Shown: positions 1 through 45,887, counted from the first letter of the whole stretch. The stretch: 61,044 bases of DNA, filler included, from Basidiobolus ranarum (GCA_040143965.1; 4 parts of 4 records of this genome joined end to end with filler, not necessarily neighbours in it); one strand, 5' to 3'. Numbers and translations: made by a program. The notes: generated by a model not told the origin, from the letters alone.

Positions 1-239
<239 letters not shown>

Positions 240-668
240 CTCTAAGACGAGAGAACAAGGGAGAAGGAAAGATCTGAATTCAATCTCAAGTTACTTTTGA
301 AGACTCAGAATCCTCCATGTCACATGATCCACCAATTGATTTCTAATGTGCAGTCCAAATTTTTTTCCTTCAAATTCAGATCTCGCACCGATAATTTGGT
401 GATTCATAAGCCTGATCCAGGATTTTACTTTGTAATCAACAGTATCGCAGTAGATTGTTGGTGATCAGAGTGTGATACGAACAACATCCAATTTCTAAGC
501 AAAATGAGCAAATATTGTTTAGACAGGCACAAAGGCACGAAAGGCACAAAAGGCGTGAGATAGGTGTGGATGGAACTCAAGGTTGATTTTATTAATTGCA
601 TTGGTCTATTTTACTATTTATTACTATTCGATACAAAAAAGGTTAGATGCATAGGTTTCTGACTGATT

Positions 669-2759
669 TCAATATCTGGACTTCTTGTTGGTGGGTACTT
701 TGAAGCTCATCTCCATACCACCCATAGCTGTGCGAGATACCCGATTGAAGCCCTTTCCAGAAAGCTCCTTGTTGACTCGGTCACCGAATGATTTTTGGGA
801 AGTTTGGCGTTGACCTCCAGCCTAGAAAAATGGTAAACAGTCAAAAAAAAATATCACCGAGCAAATGGGAACAAATGTACTAACCTTCATCTCATAGAAC
901 TTAGGAGGATGCTTGCGGTCTGCAACACCAGCTCTGATAGATCCAGAGCCAGCAGCTCTTCTCTGAGTAGCAGGCTTAGACTTAGGTTTACTACTCTTAC
1001 GAATTTGAGTACGAAGATCATCATTGTCAGAATCTGATTCTGAAGTGCTCTCATCACTTCCTTTGCCTTCGGGTTCACTTTCCTCTTCATCGTCATCGTC
1101 TTCAACCTCCACAAAGTTCTTGCTTGGATCTTGGCTTCGGACGGGTCTGAGCAATTGAAATTCGGTACTTTCCTCATCCACCTCGTATTCGGGGTTGTTG
1201 AATAAGTCGGTGAAACGGGTATCTTTGAGAGGGTTGAGTTGCTCTGCGGCATGCTCGCCATGCTTCTTCTTCTTCTTATCGTCTTCCTTAAGCAAGCGGG
1301 AGGCCAAAGCTTTATTGACTTTGGGAAGATTCTTCTTAGCACGAATACGACTTTCACGCTCTTTGTCCACTTTATCTTGAACGGCACGAGCGCGGTATTC
1401 TTCGTAGGCAAATGGATTGGCGATAAGTCTGGCTTTCTCGTACAAACGAAGATCCATGAAGAAACCGTGCATGTATGCTCTGAGCACACTAGTTCCGACC
1501 AAGTGATCAAGTCCCAAGGTATGTAACTCCTTGCGAGTGACGAACTTGTAATTCTCATAAACATTTTGTGAAGGATTCTCTTCGAGTTCTTCAGTAAGGT
1601 TATCCAAGAAAGAGGACCATCTAGGGGCAGGTCCCAAAGTAGGAATGTAGTAACTGTGAATTTGAATACCCTCATTGGCTACAAAGAGAAGACCGGAGTC
1701 TGGGACCACACAGACATCGTTGATATCTTGAGTAGGCTCAATAGATGTGAAGTGCTTTCCAGAGTCACGGTTCCAAATCTTAATAATCTTGCTATCGGCA
1801 CTGAGTACTTTTCCTTCTTCGCTCTCACTGTTACCGCCTTCCAACCAATGGAGGGACTTGATAGGGAATCCATACTGATGATCTTTGACCATCCATGGAC
1901 GATTGTTTCTAAGATCGTAGAGTAGAACGTGTCCAGTAGAGGTACCCACGGCCACAGACAAACCGTCACTTCGATATTTCATGCTTGTGATTTCCAATTT
2001 TGAAGAGTCCTCGACGAACATATCAGCAGGAAGCGTAGGAGCAAGCATACCGATTTTGGACCTGGATCTGGGATCCCAGAATTCCACTGTACCATCCTCA
2101 GTACCGAACCCGAACAATTGATGAGCTGGGTTAATTTCAACTACATTGACACCAGTGGAATCAGTCACCAGAGGATTCAAGAATCTACCCTGATCAAGGT
2201 TAAGACGGTAGACTTCGTTTGAAGCACCACCTACGAGTAAATCGCAAGAAGGAAAGTGATAATCCAGATCTCTACCAAACTTGGGAATTCTGGTACTATA
2301 ATGAATTCCACCTTGAGCATGTAACTCGACGGAACGATCATTTTGAAGTAAAGCTGACTTGGTCCAGTCATCAGATAATAAGACAAAATTTACATTTTCA
2401 GCGTCAGTGTGACGTTCAAACTTCATAGACATTTCAGCATACTCGAAAACTCTCATTTGGGGTTTATAGACACCAGTAGCAACTGCATATTTACCATCTC
2501 TAGTAGGTTTTATTTTGATGGAAGCCTCTGGAAACTCAAAATCCTGAATGAGTTCAATACGATGTCTCCATTCTATATCATCACTAGTTAGCTTGAACAC
2601 GAAGAAGAAGGTCTACAAACAAAACTCACACATACCTAGATCGTTTTTAAGGGCTCTACGTTTTCTTCTTGCCAACCAGTCAGGAATTGCTCTTGAGGTA
2701 TTAGTCCCTGATACTTGATATATCTTGACATTATTTGGGTTTGAGATCTGAATCGACAT
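669..2759 (-). CDS. ENP2: Ribosome biogenesis WD40 protein Enp2/NOL10, 3 exons (2759-2636, 2572-885, 821-669)
   Basis: Motifs RIELIQDFEFPEAS, ATGVYKPQMRVFE, TRIPKFGRDL, LGPAPRWSSFLDNLTEELEE and RAYMHGFF, plus a NUC153-like DTRFTDLFNNPEYEVDE. GT-AG introns at 2635-2573 and 884-822 join the frames; TGA at 671-669. Confidence 0.93.
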
Positions 2760-3982
2760 ATGTATGTGTGTACTCTCTTTGCAATTTTTATGTATATATG
2801 TGAAGTTTCGTTTGAAAATAAAAGTATATTCCACACCAAGTGTAATACGATATGCAACGAGAGTCCTTCTCACACTAATTCTTTTTTTTCAGATATCGAT
2901 TTTTTCTTTTTTTTTCAAGTCATTTTGGTCCGATCATTTGGCAGTCACGTTACCTTTTTTTCATCCCATCCACACTCGAGAGATAGAATTTTGCATTCAA
3001 AGGTGACGATTCTTTCCAGTATAAATTTAGTAGTGATGGGATTTCCTACATTGAACAAACTATGCTGTTAGGAAAGTAGAAGACAGAAGTGAATCTGAAT
3101 CCTTATTCCTACTCCAACTCATTCTGCAATATATGCAGCTCATTCTATTCTTGTATAGAAATAGCTGGATATAGTATTTAGGAATAGAATCAGTGTCATG
3201 CAGTAAGTGATGTAGTTCTAGTAAGAAACGTGGATGAATAGGTAGAAGTTCAATCAAATGGAAACCTATTTTGCTGCTTGGGTAATACTTGTCTCAGCTA
3301 GTTGAGCCCAATGCGAAACAGTGAGCAATCAAGATGTTGTATGAAAGCAACGAAATACTCCGACAACGCCAAGAAAGGCATTTATATAGAATACATATAG
3401 TTTGTTGTATAAGGTGTGTTGAGGAGTAAATAGAGTGTGAGTATATGCAGTGTATATTGTATATTATATAGGATGTATAGAATTGTGGATCAATTCATAA
3501 AAGTTGTAGTGGCTAATCGATTCAAATATTCGATTCATACCAAGCAGCTGAACAACTGGTATAGGCGTACAAATGTATATTCCTCAACTAGTACAAGGGA
3601 AACAGCTCTAAATACTTCACTAATATAAAACATATATAAACATTTAATCGGAGATCACAATCAGGTGAGATTTAATTGCTTCGGTATAGTATATGTATAT
3701 ATAAATTGGTTTCCGTTCACTGCTTCTCACATCTATTGGAAATAAAGCAATTCAAGAGAAAAGGAAAATTATTTATATAACAGACAAAGATTTCAAAGGT
3801 AGCAAATTTGAATAGAATGGTTGAAGTGTTTATCCGGAAGTAGAATCGTTATTAAACCGATCCTTGATTATAGGTCAATCCAAAAAAAAGTTATTCCGAA
3901 TTGTATGAATGTTTTTCTTGTACGATCATGATAAAGAAGAATCTAAAGTTAGGCCTCTAATGAATCTGAATAGTCTTACAAA

Positions 3983-6900
3983 TTAATTAGAACTTGGTTG
4001 TGGTCCAGACAGCCGCGGTGATTGATGATGACCATTCGAGTTTTGGGGACCACCAAGAGGTGCTGAGCCAGGTCTATGGTCTTGATTATAGCCCTACAAA
4101 GGTTGGTTCGCTTTTTCAGTATTGTTATGGTACATATGCAAATGTATATAGACTCTTACATCTTTGACGTCAGGGTGTCGGCCCATACTTGCGGCTTTCT
4201 CACTAATACCAACTAATGCTTCTGCTCCATCATAGTCTTCGTCTACTTGGCGAGGTGGAATGCCGCCCATGGCAGGCTTATCGGATCGAGAAGAAATTGG
4301 GGAGTAACTATTAGGCTTATTGAGGTTATTCATTCCATCAGGTCGGGCATGATGAGGGTGTGGACTAGGGCTTTCTTTCATGTTACGGATTTCGGGTGGC
4401 ATGCTAGCCCTTTTGACATCAACATGTCTTCCATCATTGTGAGTAGGGGCAGGTGATGGCGTAAGTGTCCTAATATCTTTGATACCAGTCACGGGGCTAT
4501 TTCTACTATAATAGATAAATACCTTTAGTTTCTTAATGCCTACTGTAAGAATACAAAAAAAAGAAACCTACTTTCTTTCATCAGAGGGCGATATCATGTG
4601 GGATTTATGATCCATCATCATCGGCATTGATGAGGGCGTAGGTATACCAGGCCCAAGCGACCGTCTAGCCATATCAACGTTGTGAGGTGATTCATTGGGG
4701 TGCATTCTGGGCGATCTCTCGACCGATCCGGGAAGGGAGTGAACTTCATTTCTATGATATGGGTTCATCCCATTGCCAGGTCTATTTAGAGGCTCTTGTT
4801 TGACTTTACTAGGGTCCATTTCCATGTCATTTCTCCGGTCTCCAAAAGGTGATCCTCGGAGAGAAGCCTGCATAGGATGAGGGGGATGCATTTCTGAGGG
4901 TGGACGCATTACTGGAGATGGTGCATTAGGGGGTCTTAATGGCATTCGATAGTCTTGCGGAGGAGGGCCTGAGGAGAAACCGTCATTATTGGGAGGCTTC
5001 ATAGGTTGTTGCGGACTCATATAAGGTTGCGATCTTCCATCGGGGCCGTATGATCCTCTCATTCCACTTGCCATTTCAGGTATTCTTTGAGGGTCTTCAC
5101 GAGGTTGGTGGCTAAATGGTGGGGGTGTACGTCTAAAACCAGGAGGTCCTGGTGGCATGTCTCTACCACCCATAGATGATTCATTCGGGCCAGACTTGAT
5201 AGAGTTATTAGTAATAGATTCACAAAAAAATAAGGCACTCAAACTAATACCAGAGGTGGTGGAAGAGGGCCTCCGGGCCTACTTTCCGGTGGTCTCAGAG
5301 GATAGCCTGGCATACTTTGTGGTGGTCCTTGGGAAGCTGAGCCTAAGCTCTATATCAGATGATAATATCATAGACATAAATATGGAGTACTTGAGGAACA
5401 CCAATCAATCAGTTACTTACCTGACCAAATTGAGGTGGAATACCCGCCATAGCTGAAGCTGTACTGTTTTGGTACATGGTAAGATTGACATCTTGTGGAA
5501 CGGGGGCCGAGCTGCTAGGAGGACTAAATGTAGTAAAATATAGAAAACAGTTATTAGACATCTCAAAAGCTGCATAATGTAGTATTTCTAAGACTTTACG
5601 TACCCTCCGGCCTGAGCATTTCTTAATAAGAGCAACCTTTGTTTAATGTGCGGATTATTAGGGTCAAGCTCAGCAGCACGTTGATAGGCGTCAATGGCAT
5701 CGTTGATTTGATTGTTACAAGACTCATATAGGGTTCCCAAGTCATACCAGACTTCACTAATGTAGGGATTCAGTCTAATGGCTCTGCTATAAGCATCTAA
5801 TGCATCTCGATACTGTTGGCAATTGCATGTTAGGATGTATACCGACTATCCGTTCAATACTAGTTAATAGGTAACTAACCTGTTGTATCTGATAGTATAG
5901 AACACCAATGGAGCACCAGAAAGTAGGATTTTTACCGTCCCGGTAGCTAATTTGCAATTGTTAGCTTGACAAAACAACTGAAAACGATGTATCTAATACT
6001 TACACAGCTTGTTGATATGCTTCATATGCCTTACTATATTTTTGTTGAGCCATATAGCATCGACCCAACAAGTACCATGATTGTGCGTCGGCACTGTCTG
6101 TAAAAGAATGCATGATCAGTCGCTATATACTATACAAAGTTGATGCAACTCGACATACCAGCCTCCAGTGATTTTGTCAAATAGCCAATTGCTGTGTCTT
6201 GATTGGCAAATGGAGCATTTGGCTGATGACAAAGCCAACCCAATTGCTGTAAAACTTTAGCATGGTTGGGGTTTTCAGTAAGGACTCTTTCATAAGCTTC
6301 TTTGGCAAGTTGATACTACACGTGAATATTTAGACGATTAGAATTCCCAAAGAGCCCATACTTGTAATGATCTCACTTACCTCTTTTTGCTGCTCGTAAA
6401 CATGGCCAATCTGGAACCATATATCTACCTCGGTGAGAGGGCGAGGAGGAGAGCGAAGAATATATTGAAAACACTACGAAACAAATTTAGAAAATCTTGA
6501 CGCGAAGAGTAAAATAATCCTAACACTTACCTGTAAGCTAAGGTCGTACTTTTGTTGTTGCTTATAAATGATACCAAGTCTAAAATAAATCTCGTTGGCC
6601 TTTTCGAACTTGGGATCCATTCGTAACACGGCAGAAAATGCCTCTTCGGCATGTTCTAATGATTGATAACGATCATATAGTATTCCTATTCCATACCAGA
6701 GCTTGGGCTCCTATGAACAATGAGTTAGCGTCAGATATCAAAACGCTCAGGGAGAATGATTTAGGCAAATATGACTCATTGCTAAACACACCTTGGGATT
6801 AGGAAGATGATAAAGTGCTTGTTGATAGGCAGTATAGGCTTTTTGTAGATCATCCATCATAAGGTAACAATGACCCAATGCTCCCCATATTTCACCATTG

Positions 6901-7299
6901 TTTTGTTCGATATTGAGGATCCTCTGAAAATATTCGACCGCCTTCCTCAAAAAATTAAAAAAAATCTCCTGCAAATGGCATAAGAAAAATACTGACTTTA
7001 GGAAACTGCTCGCGTCCTCTACATAGGGAAGCGATTTGTGTAAGGGCGGGGATGGAATATGGATTGTGTCTTAGAGTAGCCTCATAAGCATTCATTGCGC
7101 GATCAAACTCCTGCATGAGCTCAGCCAACGCGCCTGGTTTATTTTAGGGTGAAGATGGCTCAATACTCAAAACATCCGCTGTGATAAGTTTACACAAAAC
7201 TTAAAACATCAACATACCTAACTGTAACCATGTCTGTTCGTTCATTGACACCAACTTTTGGGAAGGTGTCATTTGTTGGGTGGCCGAGGCTGTTGCCAT
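3983..7299 (-). CDS. SSN6: General transcriptional co-repressor Ssn6/Cyc8 (TPR repeats plus Pro/Met-rich low-complexity tail), about 13 introns; start codon uncertain
   Basis: Spliced exons give NEQTWLQLG, GEIWGALGHCYLMMDDLQKAYTAYQQALYHLPNPK, EPKLWYGIGILYDRY, IYFRLGIIYKQQ, NPTFWCSIGVLYYQ and EVWYDLGTLYESCNNQ. The last exon ends with TAA at 3985-3983. Confidence 0.9.
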
Positions 7300-10000
7300 T
7301 ACGGCTGGAGATGCACCTGAGGTGGACAGTTTGGAAGAAGAGAAAGTGGAAAAAGTACGATTTAAGAAACTATTGTCTTCGTCAATCAGGTCTAAAATGT
7401 TATCAGAATTTCTTTTAGTAAAGATTTCAATAAAAGGATAGGATCATTTGGTGATGGAATTAAAAAGATGGAGTAGTTAACGAATTAAAGAAATCAGAGT
7501 CAAAACACTGACATTACCCGAAGATAAACGGAGTATCCAAGAAAAAAAGGAACAAGCAGGTTAATATAATTTTGGTCCAGAAAAAAGGAGGGTAGGGTAA
7601 GTAACACAATACAATCTTCAAGCTAGAACACGGGAACGCTAAATTTGACAAAAGCTAGAATTGAGGCATCATTACGTGGCTGCTCAATGAAATTGATATA
7701 TTCTTAAAATAAATATCCCCATTCCAACTGATTCATTCTTGTTGCTAGTGATTCAAAATCATTGAACACGAATAAATGAGAGATTGTTTCGGCTCGAAAT
7801 ATTTTGTCATCCAATTTCAATGAATTGTTGTTCTACTTTAAAAGGCACTGTATTTGTTTCGTCAGTACGATAGAACCGAGATCGGCAAAGATTTTCCTTG
7901 ATGGCCAAGTTGTGTTAACGCGTGAAAAAGCCAATATCCACCAGGAAGATTCAGCGCATACTCAACACACTGGTTGGAGTCCTCTCTGAACTGCATTATG
8001 CCTAGATTATGCACACTGTAGAAGCTATGTAGTTAGAGTATAGTATCCGCGCAGGTATCTGTAGCTGTATCCGCACTCGTTTTGCCAACTGGATTGACTC
8101 TTTACACAGCAGTAACACATAATCGTTTTATATACAAACAATATCAGCGCAAGATGACACCTTCCCAAATAGGCACATTACATACTGAACGAAATGGTGA
8201 ATTTGGGTAGAGAATTTTGCATCTGTAATTCACTCAAAGTAGCAATTGAGATTTGTTCAAGGTGAATCAAGTTACCTAATGCCTTTGTATCAAAACTTAC
8301 CTAATGCTTTATATATCAAGAGAGTGACATGATCGGAACATGTATGCTAGTTATCAAATCTCTCAGGTAGAGTCGACCATACGGACTTGTTACAATGTTA
8401 CTAAATCAGATGATGCAACTTTGAAAGGGGAAGGTGATGTGGTGATTATCTTCAGTGCGATTAGCGGTTTTGGGTCTTTTGATTCTGCCTTTGAGTCCGT
8501 TGTTAATGACAAATCCACTTGACTTGGATCCGGACTCTGTAATCGAGGATCCCGTATCGAACCTGGGTAGATCTGCTCTGAATTCAGCATTTGAAGTTGG
8601 ATCCTAATAGTTGAAATATAATCGAGTACCAAGGACAACGTCCAAGTTTACATATATAGACATGGTATATCTCTATCATTTGTACTCAATTTTTAATCAA
8701 CTTGCCCCATTTGATGGCATTTTCCATTTTAGAACCACGCCGATGTTTAGACTGTAGTTCATATGCGTTTTCAGTATATATATAATAAATATAGTCTTCA
8801 TCTGGATGTTTGCAGATAACCTTAATGGTTTTGGGTGGTCGTAGTGACATAAATTAAACAGTGAATCAAGTCATGACATGAGCGTTACAAGCTAACTCAT
8901 TCATAGTTCTCCCTCAACCCAGCAGCTTGGGAATTTAGTCTAAAAATACCTTGAGCAGTGTTCGGTGCTCTTCTGTTTCTTGATCACATTATCTTGTGCT
9001 TTTTGCTGTATCGCACAAAAGGCAACTTGAGTCTTTTTGCCCAACCTTCGTTTTATTTGATACATAATTGAGCTGTTTAACTATATGCCCTTATTTAAAC
9101 CTCTTATTTGCACATTCTTAAAACAACCGAAACCTTTGCGTTGATCAGAACCGTAATCACTCAAACATGTTTGTGTGTCTTAGTTATACAAATTCATGCT
9201 CCACCTAACCCAGCCTGTGCATAATCGTGATCCTCATAAAACCGTAGAGGTAAGAATCAACTCCCAGACGATCGATTAATCGCACAGTGAAAGCGTGATC
9301 AGGACATTCAATGGATTAAGAGAAAAATTCTCCAGAAACCGTCACTATTATTGTTATATAACATGTACTGAATAATGAACGAAAAAAAGAAATGTGACGG
9401 GCCTTCGAACCCCATGTTCCAGCATTTTCGCAATAGCCAATGTGGTCCATGTATTCATTGATAATGGAATACTCTGATCAGAAGAGTCACTACTCATTGG
9501 CTATAGATGGTTTTTTTTTCGGTGGTGCATTACCAAATATTATCAATAAAAGTCAATTCAATTATATACTCAATTGGTGGAGGTGTCAAGTAGTTGGTAC
9601 AAAAAAAAATACTGGAAAAAAAAGAATAAGAAACCGAGGCTTGTAATATATGGTTTGCTGCTTGCCGACGTTGGCGAAATAGAAGTACTGGAAGAAGTTG
9701 CTATACTGTTCTCAATATCCAATAAACTCTTCGTCAAAATCTACTCATATACAAGACAGCCGGTTCGTTCAATATTCTTGTTGTTTAATGAGCCTGGCCT
9801 TTTTTCTTATTTTGTTTATTTCGTAGGTTTATCGCCTCTCATTGCCTTCACTACTTTTTTTGTTGAACAAAAAACATTTTCTTTATTCACTTCATTTTCT
9901 ATCATATAATCTTTATCAGCTAGGTTTGTATTTCAGGCCATTGTTTTCTTTTCCCTTTCATGATATACCAAGGAACTAAAGTGGCTTTATATTTAACAGA

Positions 10001-12307
10001 ATGGCTTCACAAGGAATAGACTCTCGTATCTCAGAACTCAGAGATTTTATAAGCTATTTTGCTCCGGGAAATATTGTAGAGTATGGTTCTTTTATTCATA
10101 AAAAGCAACCCTTCCGCAATTATTTCGAAGAGAGCCGTTTCACAAATCCTTCACGAAACTCTGGATACAGGCCTTATGAGAAAGGCTATGACCGTCGGTA
10201 TGAACCGACTAGAGACAAGGTATCTAAATGGTTATTTGGTATATGACTCTTTGGGTCGTTGTCATAACCTTGTTCTCAATGATATATCATAGAAGCCAAG
10301 ACATCCCTCTTGTTTCAACTCCAGCCGTGAATCCACTCCAGAGGATGCGAGTGATTCTCCTAGGAGTGCGTCCGAGTCAATCAGTAGTCCAGACTCAAAT
10401 CCCAATCCCACTCCTCGAGATACAGATCCTCTCCCATTATCTCCAAATTTAGATGTTGTTAAAATGCAACTTGAGGTATTATGCCTTTTTGTCAGCTACA
10501 TATCCCTAAAAATAGACTAACATTATGTTGAATTACAACAAAGGCCCTATCCCGAATTCCCTCTCCCATTGACGACACACTCCCACCCGCTGACGGTTTC
10601 AAACTCAATCAGGCCGGAATCAACAAAGCTTTTAAAGACATAGTTAGCTTGGAAAAATCACCTAGAGTCCATGTTGGTGGTAAGACAATCCATCCTCATG
10701 TAGGCGGTAAATCCCGAGGTAATTCTCCCCCACGTGGTATGTTGGGCGGGAAAGGGCTACCAATCACTTCACATCAAGTGCGCCCAAGCCAAGGTGGCAA
10801 AGGAACCGTCAGAGCTGTTACTTCTGGAAAGCAAATTCCCTATCATGGACTGCAAATGAGCTTATCTTCCGAAGATGAAAGTGATAGTAGCGTAGGTAGC
10901 GATAGTGATACATCGACTGACTCTTCGGATGAAGAGATATCCGTTGGCACAATCCCACTTGGCGATAAACCTGTGAGTGCTTCCAAAGGTGCATTTAAGT
11001 TGGCTCAAAGCTCCTCTCTTCAGGAAGAGGAAGAAGATACCATTGTTGTTGATGATTTGGATATCGAAACTGAAGGTATGGCTTATCGTTTATTTTTGAT
11101 TCCGATCGCTCGTCCTAACATCTTAATAGAAACTAAGCCTTCAAGCATAACTCAACGTATTGGAGGTGCCAATGCTTATGCCAAGAAACCCGTTGTCCAG
11201 AGTTATCCCAAATCCGAGATTATGTCTGTATCAAATCCTATTCGCCAAGTAGGAAAGTCTAAGCGCAAGATATCGAGTGATATGATAGTTATGGATGATC
11301 AAAGCGTAGCTAGTCATCCAGTTTTATCTACGGCTATGCCGCAAGAATCCTCAAGAAAGAGATTAATTGTGAGCTTGAAGTTACCAACTGTGAAGCAACC
11401 AAGACCCCATAAGAGTCTCATAGTGAAGCTTCAGATTCCGGCGCCTTCAGATTGCATCGACTCGAAGAAGCGGCCCATCTCTTTAGATAAGCGACAATTG
11501 TCAAGTATTAGTTTCAAGAAAGCTCACAGACCCGAGTCAGCGATAAAGCACAACAAACTCAACTCAGTATCGAGTGCTAACGATGTAAAGAGTATGCCAC
11601 TCGATAATAAAACTTCAAGCAGAACACTCTCGCATAAGCAACGAGCTGTTCAAATGAAGTTAGAAGCCGAGAGACTTTTTGAGAAAGGTGATGGTTATCA
11701 AGAGCGTGCCGTTGCAATACAAACGCACAGTCTGTTCCATCAAATCCTATGTTTTTGCGAACTAGAGGTAATACACTCATTACACATATCTTTATACCAT
11801 TCCTTCAACTCATCCAACTTTTCCCTAGCATAACAAGGAAACGTTCGAAGCAGCTTGTGACATAGCCCATGAAATAAGAATGAATGTTGGGGATGTCATT
11901 GAGCAACATGTATCCTGTGGCAACTTGGGAATAGCCGGTTTATTGTAAGTATATTAATCGTTTGTATTACCTTACAACCTGTCAGTCAACTTGGCCCTAA
12001 CCCCTATTTCTTCCAAAGGATGAAAATTGAATCAATTCTCACGTTCCGTATATTGAACCTTCAAAGCAGCCTCATCAAGACGAAGACTGTTGAAATGAAA
12101 TCACAAAACCCCAGGATCAGTACGAATTATTTGAATACTGTCCAGAAGTTTACTGAGGATTTTCAGTCTGTTACAAAGAAGTGGCATGATGCTGAAGCTT
12201 TCCTTTCACGGGATCCAGTGCTCATACCTACCACTCGTGACTCACTCTCCTTGTTTACTTCTCTATCACATATTGTGGAAGTAACAAAAACTGTCGTTCC
12301 TTTGTAG
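10001..12307 (+). CDS. Uncharacterised nuclear protein with AF4/FMR2 (AFF)-like C-terminal domain; 6 predicted exons
   Basis: GT-AG introns at 10220-10292, ~10476-10542, 11076-11129, 11768-11828 and ~11946-12018 join ORFs 10001, 10649 and 12020 into one frame. The N-terminal two-thirds is Ser/acidic and low-complexity; the C-terminus looks helical. Confidence 0.7.
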
Positions 12308-13160
12308 ATATCTCGACCCCTTCTCGACCTCTTCAATTCCTTTGTATACTTGCCATCAACACGAGTTGGTTTTGTTTAGAAGCCTATCATTATTCTTAGT
12401 TTCATTGGCTACTGTACAATCCCATCAATTTTACCAATAGAATACACCTTGAATCTAATTCCAATGTTAATCCAATGTTAGTTGAACTAAAATACCCCTT
12501 CATTGAAGGATAAATCTCACCCACCATGAACCAAAATGCCCCTTCATTGTTGAAGGATAAATCTCAGCCGCAACCTTATACTCTGCATACACATGCCATC
12601 AGGGTCCAATCCTTTTTTAAGGCCACTTTTCACGGTCACCTATTCCAGATCACCATGTGGCTCCTGAGATGTACACCATTCGGTCGCACTCATTGTTCCA
12701 GAAAATTAGGAGCATAGTCGAGAGCTTTCCCTACCTCCTTATTTCCCAAAAGAGACAGATTAATAGAGGAGATTAATCAAATATAAGAAGTGTTCGATGC
12801 TTCTATTCCACGTGCCACGTGATTCGATTTGATACAGATCTGATTATCTATGAAAAATTTTCTATTCCAGATTTTGAAATTTCAGTTTACCAGAAGACTC
12901 TATCCGATCAATCAAGGAATATCGATCAAACCTTTTTACCGTTACCTTCGTGCGTTACCGTGTTTTCTAAGCAATTTAGCCCAACGGTAGTTCATGTTTT
13001 GTAAATTTTGTCTAGTAAACATGGAGCATAAATAAGCTATATATTAAGCAATGTTAAGTCATTTGCTTGATCCCGAGTTGAATTGATCCGAGAAATAAAA
13101 ATGGTTTCTTGTTTTTGATTAGCCTCCCTCTTTACCCTGTTGCTTCATTTCAGCTTGAAG

Positions 13161-13242
13161 GTCAGTAATAACTCTAATACTTGTGTCCACACATCCATCA
13201 TCTAAAGATCATTCAAACATAACTAAATGTCTTCTTTTCTAG
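13161..13242 (+). other. Putative 5'-UTR intron of RPL15
   Basis: AG|GTCAGT donor, ACTAA branch-like site and CTTCTTTTCTAG acceptor 20 nt upstream of the ATG. Confidence 0.6.
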
Positions 13243-13262
13243 TTTGGTAAGTAACATCAAAT

Positions 13263-13877
13263 ATGGGTGCTTATAAATATATCGAAGAGTTGTACAAGAA
13301 GAAGCAGTCCGATGTTATGGGCTTCTTGCTCCGTGTTCGTTGTTGGGAATACAGACAATTGAACGTTATCCATCGTGCTTCCCGTCCTTCCCGCCCTGAT
13401 AAGGCTCGTCGTTTGGGATACAAGGCCAAGCAAGGTTACGTTATCTATCGTATCCGTGTCCGTCGTGGTAACCGTAAGAGACCTGTTTCCAAGGGTGCTC
13501 AATTCGGTAAGCCTGTTAACCAAGGTATCAACCACCTTAAATACCAACGTTCCCTTCGCGCTACTGCTGAAGAACGTGTTGGTCGCAAATGCGCCAACTT
13601 GAGAGTATTGAACTCATACTGGGTTAACCAAGACTCTACCTACAAGTACTTCGAGATTATTCTCGTTGATCCTTCCCACAAGGCTATCCGCCGTGATGCT
13701 CGCATTAACTGGATCTGTAACCCTGTTCACAAGCGCCGTGAAGCCCGCGGTCTTACTGCTATTGGTAAGAAGAACAGAGGTCACGGTAAGGGTCACGCCT
13801 TCAACAAAACCATCGGTTCTGGTAGACGCAACAACTGGATCAAGAGAAACACTTTGTCCCTTAGACGTTATCGTTAA
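13263..13877 (+). CDS. RPL15: 60S ribosomal protein L15 (eL15)
   Basis: 204-aa [35 protein letters not shown]...[17 protein letters not shown], with strongly biased codon usage. Confidence 0.99.
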
Positions 13878-14438
13878 ACTAAGTAGTCTATTTGAAACTG
13901 GGCTACTTGATAATAATAAAAGAACTATTCTCAGCCTCCAACTCCATGTTTTTTCGTTGTCATATACATCACGCTTCATCTATGAAACAATCGCCAAGGT
14001 ACATAGACGTAGATTTCTATAAGAATCAGGTAATGTTCCTGTAATTTGCTTGGCTGCCATAGCTAGTGTAATCATCAGATGGTGCTTGGATCAGGAACTC
14101 AGCTGGTGTTCATGTAGCGACATCTAATCTAAAAATAGAAGCCACGAAGAACAGCTCTTGAGATGCAGTGACAGCATTAATTTAAGCTTAAGTTTTGAGA
14201 TAGCAAAATCAGCCAAATCAGCCCCAATCAGCCAATCTAACTCAAATATATTGCTTTGTAAATCATGATGGCGTAAACTGTGGTCATATTCATTCTTAAT
14301 CCAGCTAACCACAATATTCGATGTGTATTAGTGACATCTTGGCTGGGTGACGTTGTAATGATTATAGGAGTCAAATATCCAATGACTACCTGATGAGAAG
14401 CTATATATACTGCTACAGTCTTTCTTTAAATCAAGAAA

Positions 14439-14684
14439 ATGCGCACTTCATCTCTGTTCATATTGCTGGCTTTAGTTTGCATCTCTGTCAAGAGTGCTCC
14501 TCTGTTCCCCTACAACCCGACAGACACCCCGACAGACACCCCGACAGACACTATTGCTAGGACGACGATACCACGTATGGATTTACCTAATCTGGATTTT
14601 GAGTATGTGTATCATTATGCTAAGCAAGAGAACGATGCACGTGCTTTCTTGGAAAATGAAATTGATTCAGAGGAGCTACTATGA
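14439..14684 (+). CDS. Small secreted protein (81 aa) with a (PTDT)x3 repeat
   Basis: Signal-peptide-like MRTSSLFILLALVCISVKSAP, TATA-like TATATATA about 35 nt upstream, and a 12-nt tandem repeat (CCGACAGACACC). Confidence 0.6.
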   Translation: MRTSSLFILLALVCISVKSAPLFPYNPTDTPTDTPTDTIARTTIPRMDLPNLDFEYVYHYAKQENDARAFLENEIDSEELL

Positions 14685-15011
14685 ATACTCCTTATTCCAT
14701 TGTCCCGAGTCGCTATTGATCGAGCAAATTTACCTCCTTCCATTCGCACTGTGCGATCTTGTATTCTAGCATCTTGTAAACTACGTAATGTATGCCACTC
14801 CTTTTGTAATCCTCCATTTCAAATTAACTCCATGCGCATATAGAATGAGCTGTTAAATATAAAATGATTCAAGTGAATTTTTTGTTACAGCTGCATTTAT
14901 GCTTTTAATAAAAGCTCCATGATATTGAATAGATCAATCGAAGTCTTTTTATTGTTTCTACGTCTATTTAAGTCCGAAAGTCTTTTAACTTCACCATAGT
15001 CATGTTCAAAA

Positions 15012-15216
15012 TCATGACAACTTCTTATCTACTATTTCTTTGATAAGTTTCCGAATTTTGAGATCCTTAATCTGCTCTAACCCTTTGTTCAGCTTGCTAT
15101 AGTCAAGAGAATCAGAGGATCCTCCCTGCTGGTCTCTAAACCCTGAAGCAATAACGTCGTTGGCAATTCTTTCCTTATCGTCATCAGACAGTTCACCCTG
15201 ATGCTTAGATATGCGG
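15012..15216 (-). CDS. 3' end of an unidentified coding sequence truncated by the assembly gap
   Basis: Open frame from the gap edge: RISKHQGELSDDDKERIANDVIASGFRDQQGGSSDSLDYSKLNKGLEQIKDLKIRKLIKEIVDKKLS*. Composition is protein-like. Confidence 0.5.
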
Positions 15217-15316
15217 NNNNNNNNNNNNNNNNNNNNNNNNNNNNNNNNNNNNNNNNNNNNTTAATTAATTAANNNNNNNNNNNNNNNNNNNNNNNNNNNN
15301 NNNNNNNNNNNNNNNN
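15217..15316. other. Assembly gap with artificial TTAATTAATTAA linker
   Basis: N-run flanking a 12-mer with stops in all frames; identical at 30521-30620 and 45788-45887. Confidence 0.97.
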
Positions 15317-30520: not shown

Positions 30521-30620
30521 NNNNNNNNNNNNNNNNNNNNNNNNNNNNNNNNNNNNNNNNNNNNTTAATTAATTAANNNNNNNNNNNNNNNNNNNNNNNN
30601 NNNNNNNNNNNNNNNNNNNN
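30521..30620. other. Assembly gap with artificial linker
   Basis: N-run with TTAATTAATTAA. Confidence 0.97.
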
Positions 30621-45787: not shown

Positions 45788-45887
45788 NNNNNNNNNNNNN
45801 NNNNNNNNNNNNNNNNNNNNNNNNNNNNNNNTTAATTAATTAANNNNNNNNNNNNNNNNNNNNNNNNNNNNNNNNNNNNNNNNNNNN
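45788..45887. other. Assembly gap with artificial linker
   Basis: N-run with TTAATTAATTAA. Confidence 0.97.

Follow-up and report, generated by a model that had tools for sequence, protein, structure and literature searches.

A probable AFF/Ebp1-family scaffold with tandem candidate ET-binding motifs in the early-branching fungus Basidiobolus ranarum

A gene of Basidiobolus ranarum (phylum Basidiobolomycota) encodes a 658-residue protein that, as judged from its computed gene model, fold and family relationships, very probably belongs to the AFF/Ebp1 family; searches by structure, by sequence profile and by language-model features converge on this assignment. In animals, the complex that frees paused RNA polymerase II (Pol II) has AFF proteins as its scaffold; MLL leukaemia and HIV Tat both hijack this complex. 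Our preferred reading, to which we give a probability of about 0.6, is that the Basidiobolus protein is a scaffold whose tandem motifs dock a Taf14-type chromatin reader and which works together with ELL and EAF, possibly also recruiting P-TEFb. Candidate Taf14 and cyclin sites on an AFF protein of an early-branching fungus bear on whether the full super elongation complex (SEC) is ancient. Fungal AFF homologues were already known (Ebp1, with relatives in many fungi), and the Basidiobolus gene is a further member of that family; what is new is a conserved N-terminal island resembling the cyclin-T-binding helices of AFF4, a match made post hoc, and a probable second, longer type of AFF-like gene.

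The gene lies in a window of 61,044 nucleotides, the whole stretch of DNA that was analysed, which consists of four separate pieces joined by N spacers (15217-15316, 30521-30620 and 45788-45887); contig C388, which carries the gene, occupies bases 1-15216. A preliminary description, made from the sequence alone, had flagged positions 11350..12307. The gene is real, but this interval is only its 3' part. All five C-terminal peptides quoted in that description are present, in the same order, in the spliced product; the C-terminus and the motifs had thus been found, whereas what had been missed are the gene's 5' half with its conserved island near the N-terminus, and the three other family genes of the genome. 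All five introns are of the GT..AG type (54-74 nt), and the single open frame, with no internal stop, gives a product identical to P0001, an independently deposited, uncharacterised protein of B. ranarum. Both introns within the protein's C-terminal homology domain (CHD) are shared, in position and in phase, with a paralogue on contig C7148, and the deposited model and the homologues both support the splice junctions. The features are as follows (window coordinates):

10001..12307, plus strand: AFF/Ebp1-family scaffold gene, six exons, 658 aa (deposited model P0001), from splicing and identity to P0001
10001..10219, plus strand: exon 1, aa 1-73, from splicing
10016..10096, plus strand: N-terminal island of conserved sequence, aa 6-32, a candidate for cyclin-T/P-TEFb-binding helices or else for an ELL-binding helix, from identity to P0003 and the AFF4 contact pattern score
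10293..10475, plus strand: exon 2, aa 74-134, S/P-rich and of low hydrophobicity, from splicing
10544..11075, plus strand: exon 3, aa 135-311, low-complexity, with conserved islands (aa 222-244 and 291-312) flanking an acidic Ser-rich tract, from splicing and comparison of homologues
11130..11767, plus strand: exon 4, aa 312-524, carrying both motifs and CHD helices 1-2, from splicing and the predicted model
11363..11383, plus strand: candidate ET-binding motif 1, LIVSLKL, aa 390-396, from its fit to the Taf14-ET consensus, which is perfect in P0002, P0003 and the C7148 paralogue
11417..11437, plus strand: candidate ET-binding motif 2, LIVKLQI, aa 408-414, from its fit to the Taf14-ET consensus
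11621..12304, plus strand: AFF CHD, aa 476-658, encoded across exons 4-6 and predicted to have seven helices, from the AlphaFold2 model, fold searches and profile search
11768..11828, plus strand: intron 4, phase 0, at a position common to the C7148 paralogue and, by manual register, the C6908 gene, from splicing
11829..11944, plus strand: exon 5, 116 nt, as is the paralogue's exon, from splicing
11945..12018, plus strand: intron 5, phase 2, two codons 5' of a conserved K-I/L-E/D in all three spliced genes, from splicing
12019..12307, plus strand: exon 6, with the second half of the long central helix, a short loop, the W-bearing helix, the last helices and the stop, from splicing and the predicted model
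4568-7443, minus strand: multi-exon TPR gene (Pfam TPR matches), in divergent orientation to the AFF-like gene and about 2.5 kb away from it, which we take to be Cyc8/Ssn6-like
13263-13877: ribosomal protein L15 gene (Pfam E 2e-88), downstream of the AFF-like gene

Within exon 3, at 10664-10858, a tetrapeptide unit of the (V/T)GGK type is repeated several times, with variations, ahead of a conserved SGKQIPYHG island; the paralogue has two similar units.

Residues 476-658 (183 aa) were modelled by AlphaFold2 from a two-sequence alignment, giving seven helices with a pLDDT of 80.2 and a pTM of 0.77. The preliminary description had proposed homology to the AFF CHD and Ebp1, and a comparison of such a model with the AFF4 CHD by Foldseek; the AFF4 CHD entries 6R80, 6KN5 and 6K7P indeed took ranks 1-3 (prob 1.00, TM by query 0.72-0.76, E 0.003-0.02), with no row reaching E 0.001 and a TM of 0.29 at rank 4. 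Amino acid identity to AFF4 is 15-17%. A profile built from four Basidiobolus sequences (P0001, P0002, P0003 and P0005, the last being a protein of the long type described below) retrieved three matches at E<=10 from 177,635 PDB sequences, all of them AFF4 CHD (E 0.16-0.17), and its alignment reproduced the residue register of the L-C-L-R-C-E-S motif that the preliminary description had quoted. The PDB searches with exon 6, P0001, the two-sequence profile A2 or P0005 gave chance matches only, and AFF4 was found neither with P0001 alone nor with the two-sequence profile. Pfam was silent, with no family for P0001 at E<=10 and no AFF/Ebp1 family for the exon pieces, P0002, P0003 or P0005. AFF-family genes of non-Dikarya fungi thus escape Pfam, so that claims of absence drawn from profile scans are unsafe. 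In the ESM Atlas, the features of the window protein placed an AFF4_CHD cluster first (0.88, 201 of 256 shared) and a cluster bearing Ebp1_C fifth (0.82), which we regard as a lead; the structure search of the same resource, queried with a poor model (pLDDT 0.46), named no family.

Upstream of the CHD, residues 1-475 are of low complexity by composition and probably disordered, with four conserved islands and the two motifs standing amid flanks that are 11-12% identical. One island, aa 298-309 (window 11024-11075), is acidic-hydrophobic, is kept in all three homologues and is itself a candidate binding motif. The best-conserved stretch outside the CHD is the N-terminal island, in which 23 of 26 residues (aa 6-31) are identical to P0003. 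In AFF4, residues 34-66 bind cyclin T1 (PMC3589825). A pattern of the 11 AFF4 contact residues named in PMC3589825 and PMC8022399, with a gap of 0-10 allowed, found its best site in P0001 at aa 6-32, with six of the 11 positions identical, four hydrophobic-for-hydrophobic and an insertion of eight residues (score 30). This score was reached by one of 3000 shuffles of aa 1-475, three of 2000 whole-protein shuffles and two unrelated proteins among 572 real ORFs, rates that are optimistic because the pattern was picked after the likeness had been noticed. The island lacks the upstream L34-P38 strand of AFF4, and has neither a Pfam match nor a PDB sequence match beyond chance. Co-folding of the N-terminal 44 residues with cyclin T/K gave scores of 0.34, 0.25 and 0.22, the median being below the 0.34 mark, and was weighed neither for nor against such binding. 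In a scan with the AFF4 ELL-binding pattern, taken from PMC5290273, none of four proteins had a significant site; the island is the best such site of the window protein (210 of 3000 shuffles, not significant). The island is a strong candidate for a binding site; that its partner is the cyclin of P-TEFb is a tentative suggestion.

Three further genes of the genome fall into or near the family, so that AFF-like genes probably number four if the long type is counted. The paralogue on C7148 (L006:947-2700, minus strand), found at E 1.3e-7, splices to 504 aa and keeps the N-terminal island, both motifs, both CHD introns and the handle helices, but its first CHD helices are degenerate; it could be a truncated-CHD partner or modulator. 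P0003 is its counterpart in B. meristosporus. The long type is represented by the C6908 gene (L005:2701-7694), which is rich in K/R/D/E/S and whose last 244 aa are 94% identical to P0005 (1267 aa), and by a second copy on C10415 (L033; 91%). This type has a conserved N-terminal 95-aa region, a conserved helix-plus-PKFTxFxIP island and three D-Phi-x-Phi-K/R-Phi-K repeats, with no Pfam annotation. In ESM features the long type places AFF4_CHD first (0.89), and C6908 has two intron positions in common with the window gene, the phase-0 one by manual register. Direct comparison of the A2 and P0005 profiles gave a probability of 0.5% (E 0.11), a weak result, and 13 of 1000 shuffles equalled the local alignment score. 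The fold searches with the P0005 domain, which listed no AFF entry, started from an unreliable single-sequence model (pLDDT 48) and carry no information. We consider it probable that the long type is AFF-like, a second gene type with an AFF/Ebp1-like C-terminal domain. It has no ET-motif match in P0005 and one LxVxL-type stretch in the C6908 ORF; in P0005, aa 149-176 resemble the ELL-binding segment of AFF4 without significance (469 of 3000 shuffles). Two other candidates were set aside: P0004, a tandem-repeat sequence and an artefact, and L003, a coiled-coil protein from the AFF4_CHD search of the same genome.

This distribution bears on a different assignment of roles, in which the window protein is of the AFF family but a divergent, Basidiobolus-specific paralogue outside the ELL complex; the long C6908 type would then be the working Ebp1 counterpart, and the short type would dock Taf14 in other chromatin or general-factor complexes. 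Relatives of the window gene were indeed confined to Basidiobolus in our searches (three real among four matches from 1.84 billion representatives, and two of 582 candidates; none in 598 metagenome stretches), the only match of the Ebp1_C profile in the genome is the C6908 gene, and that a weak one (15 bits, cut-off 26), the ELL-binding pattern went undetected, and the paralogue's first CHD helices have decayed. The long type, however, likewise has relatives only in Basidiobolus (one of 316 candidates), and the restricted matches therefore reflect fast divergence of the family; moreover, it is the short type, not the long, that has the AFF-like layout of ET-type motifs and N-terminal island. 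We thus consider an exclusion of the window protein from the ELL complex rather unlikely, and favour its action together with ELL and EAF.

The preliminary description had called for a search of the genome for ELL, EAF, AF9/Taf14 and cyclin T. ELL, EAF, cyclin T/K and Taf14-type genes were found, but no long protein of the AF9/ENL type was seen. Two genes are ELL-like (L018:1468-2280, G000:C63, and L024, G000:C868); one has a C-terminal occludin-homology domain above the Pfam cut-off and the other is cut by a contig end. The occludin-homology domain of human ELL2 binds AFF4. An EAF gene is also encoded, together with two intron-free cyclin T/K genes (L025:1447-2181 and L026:1057-1791), which are 92% identical and each carry the two cyclin boxes in a single exon. 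These are about equally similar to human cyclin T2 (E 1.5e-42) and cyclin K (6.4e-42), and in that alignment they differ at the positions of Leu163, Trp210 and Tyr224, the residues that hold AFF4's upstream strand. A YEATS profile gave seven exon matches in four genes: two are Taf14/Tfg3 types with an ET domain, one of them splicing to 264 aa with an ET exon that is weakly BET-like, and the remaining two are, by reading, a Yaf9 type and a YEATS2-like protein. L007 (G000:C6971) encodes a large protein that has a YEATS domain and, towards its N-terminus, a long acidic region, and that reads as YEATS2-like. A search with an AHD profile gave no match in the genome, which need not mean absence. Two BET genes with BET-type ET domains are present; two copies each of ELL, cyclin, Taf14 and BET were found in a genome in which duplicates are common. 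DOT1-family methyltransferase exons above the Pfam cut-off occur at L034/L035 (G000:C163); human DOT1L binds the AF9 domain through a motif of the same kind. The partner classes encoded (ELL, EAF, P-TEFb cyclin and a YEATS protein with an ET domain) are also present in S. pombe, so that their presence does not discriminate an animal-type SEC.

The two hydrophobic motifs noted at the outset (RLIVSLKLP and SLIVKLQIP, about 11359-11440) are present as described, and were then read as two AF9/Taf14-binding sites. The Taf14-ET consensus is Phi-x-Phi-basic-Phi-basic-Phi, and two such motifs of Tfg1 act synergistically (PMC7442819); the AF9-binding consensus is LxVxIxLxxV/L (PMC8022399). Both LxV/IxLxL/I motifs match the former at 5-6 of its 6 positions, and three homologues retain them. 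Each window motif is one basic residue short of the strict consensus, which motif 1 satisfies in three of four proteins (P0002, P0003 and the C7148 paralogue, not the window's own); the other five of the eight motifs differ at one basic position. The seven-residue core of the AF9 consensus is matched by all eight under a relaxed pattern, and the full consensus by none, the xxV/L tail being missing in 8/8. Identity to P0003 is 5/7 and 4/7 within the motifs, against 8/76 and 7/59 in the flanks. Single loose matches are frequent (seen in 21% of shuffles, and at 0.64 per 475 aa in real ORFs), but two or more occurred in 2.2% of 100,000 shuffles of aa 1-475, and among 64 long ORFs (20,169 aa; window and fetched loci) only the window gene and its paralogue have a tandem pair. 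Of the earlier reading, the fit to an ET-binding consensus is thus supported, which makes the motifs candidate sites; an AF9-like partner is so far not borne out, given the missing tail, the AHD profile without a match and the short Taf14/Tfg3 type of the YEATS genes with an ET domain.

The likely partner of the motifs is a Taf14-type ET domain, with BET as the rival. Were both motifs of an AFF-family scaffold to bind the ET domain of BET bromodomain proteins (Bdf1-like) and not Taf14, the two BET genes and the absence of an AF9-type tail would fit, and BET and YEATS-type ET domains do take structurally similar beta-strands. Against this, the motifs match the Taf14 consensus, the Taf14-type motif of Sth1 bound the ET domains of Taf14 and AF9 but, in the experiments described, not those of Bdf1 or Bdf2, and a YEATS-type domain is what animal AFF proteins use; we therefore hold BET to be an improbable partner and Taf14 the preferred one. 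Similar motifs may also occur in ascomycete Ebp1-type proteins. If so, the tandem motifs would not single out the Basidiobolus lineage.

The CHD model was also compared with 48,161 chains by VIA-align, in which helical models can reach a Z of about 13-14 by chance; 6KN5 came first with Z 15.1 (rmsd 4.5, 174/183 residues aligned), the next match having Z 11.2 over 73-120 residues, and re-alignment gave Z 15.6 for 6K7P and 6R80. Across runs, 172-174 of the 183 residues aligned to the AFF4 CHD, a fold made of a TPR-like base and handle helices, whose structures were the top matches in all three fold searches. It was because of the chance level that the fold match was cross-checked with the sequence profile. 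That level, the silence of Pfam for P0001 and Z scores of 9-11 for TPR and MIT domains could be taken to mean that the domain is a generic TPR-like helical bundle, similar to the AFF4 CHD by convergence, in a protein unrelated to AFF; with the AFF4 CHD first in structure, profile and language-model searches, nearly the whole domain covered, and a disordered-plus-CHD layout with motifs that agrees with AFF, we regard this as highly improbable. An erroneous gene model or an unexpressed gene can be given hardly any weight: the deposited P0002 model does lack the first 238 residues, but the canonical introns, open frame, identical deposited model, orthologous CHD (73% identical), common intron positions and the presence of the same N-terminus in a paralogue all speak for the gene.

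The AFF4 CHD dimerises through cores at Phe1014 and Tyr1096, and loss of Tyr1096 makes AFF4 monomeric (PMC7026398). In the four-sequence profile alignment, Leu1011 and Phe1014 of AFF4 correspond to F572 and L575 of the window protein, the AFF4 numbering being deduced from the residues named in the paper. If Thr1100, Phe1103 and Thr1107 are set against T608, F611 and T615, a register that we infer, Tyr1096 becomes Val and Leu1104 becomes Gln. On this basis the hydrophobics of core 1 look kept (F572 and L575 by the profile; F607, F611 and T615 by that register), and core 2 looks altered at the Tyr1096 position. The chances that the CHD forms homo- or heterodimers seem to us slightly better than even.

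Taken together, we propose that about 475 residues of low-complexity chain with short conserved docking motifs precede a folded AFF CHD. As a beta-strand, each LxV/IxLxL/I motif would lie in an ET-domain groove, for which the YEATS proteins of the Taf14/Tfg3 type, the fungal counterparts of AF9/ENL, are the likeliest source; the tandem pair would provide avidity, as in yeast Tfg1, and docking would tether the scaffold to chromatin with acylated histones. By analogy, we judge this docking with avidity and tethering to be fairly likely. In Pol II elongation the protein would, as Ebp1 and AFF4 do, act together with ELL/EAF, a role that we hold to be equally likely, although the pattern scan identified no ELL site; the N-terminal island might bind the cyclin of P-TEFb. 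We infer every binding step in this scheme, while fold and motif conservation are computed results.

AFF homologues have been reported in Arabidopsis, Dictyostelium, Acanthamoeba and some yeasts (bioRxiv 10.1101/817833); among the literature matches listed (the best 20 of 3046, 10 of 281 and 15 of 702, most subscription papers lying outside this scope), none described an AFF protein from Basidiobolus or from another early-diverging fungus. The motifs resemble the Taf14-ET motifs of Sth1, Snf5, Ino80, Taf2, Sas3 and Tfg1 (PMC7442819) in their four alternating hydrophobics and basic spacers, but one basic position is Ser in motif 1 and Gln in motif 2. Tfg1 also has them in tandem, the pair being synergistic (KD 0.33 uM vs 9 and 17 uM; PMC7442819), with a spacing of about 70 residues against 18 in the window protein. 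Among the Taf14 partners presented in the accessible text of that paper, there is no AFF/Ebp1 protein (PMC7442819).

Human AFF4/AFF1 (PF18876; 6R80, 6KN5, 6K7P) share with the window protein a long low-complexity N-terminal region followed by the CHD fold (Z 15-15.6, spanning AFF4 residues 916-1156), an LxV/IxL/I-type motif upstream of the CHD and, possibly, N-terminal cyclin-binding helices. The window protein differs in its size (658 aa) and low identity, in a shorter loop of its 183-aa CHD, about seven residues long where AFF4 has 38 disordered ones, in having two motifs without the xxV/L tail where AFF4 has one characterised AF9 site, and in lacking an L34-P38-like strand and a recognisable ELL-binding segment; its candidate partner is a short Taf14-type protein.

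The preliminary description had named, among yeasts, only the distant Ebp1 of S. pombe. As a view of fungi that premise is too narrow: the C-terminal half of Ebp1 has homologues in numerous fungi, though not in S. cerevisiae (PMC6212713). Ebp1 of S. pombe, the one fungal relative that has been studied, forms with Ell1 and Eaf1 a three-subunit 'rudimentary SEC', proposed as an evolutionary precursor (PMC6212713). A bolder reading, in line with the more animal-like SEC suggested in the preliminary description, would have Basidiobolus keep a full animal-type scaffold, with an N-terminal P-TEFb site, tandem AF9/Taf14-type ET sites and a dimerising CHD, so that the complete SEC would predate the animal-fungal split and the S. 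pombe complex would be a later reduction, not a precursor. On this reading, which we regard as doubtful, the tasks of the scaffold may be split between the two gene types, the short serving P-TEFb and Taf14 and the long ELL, joined by CHD heterodimers. Ebp1 itself (SPAC6G9.15c; PF21204; 498 aa) is, like the window protein, fungal and of similar size, with a disordered N-terminal half, an AFF-like C-terminal domain, and ELL and EAF in the same genome. The Ebp1_C profile does not detect the window protein, whose language-model features lean, at the level of a lead, towards AFF4_CHD over the Ebp1_C cluster; and whereas Cdk9/Pch1 (P-TEFb) and Tfg3 were absent from the Ebp1 copurification (PMC6212713), the window protein has candidate sites for both.
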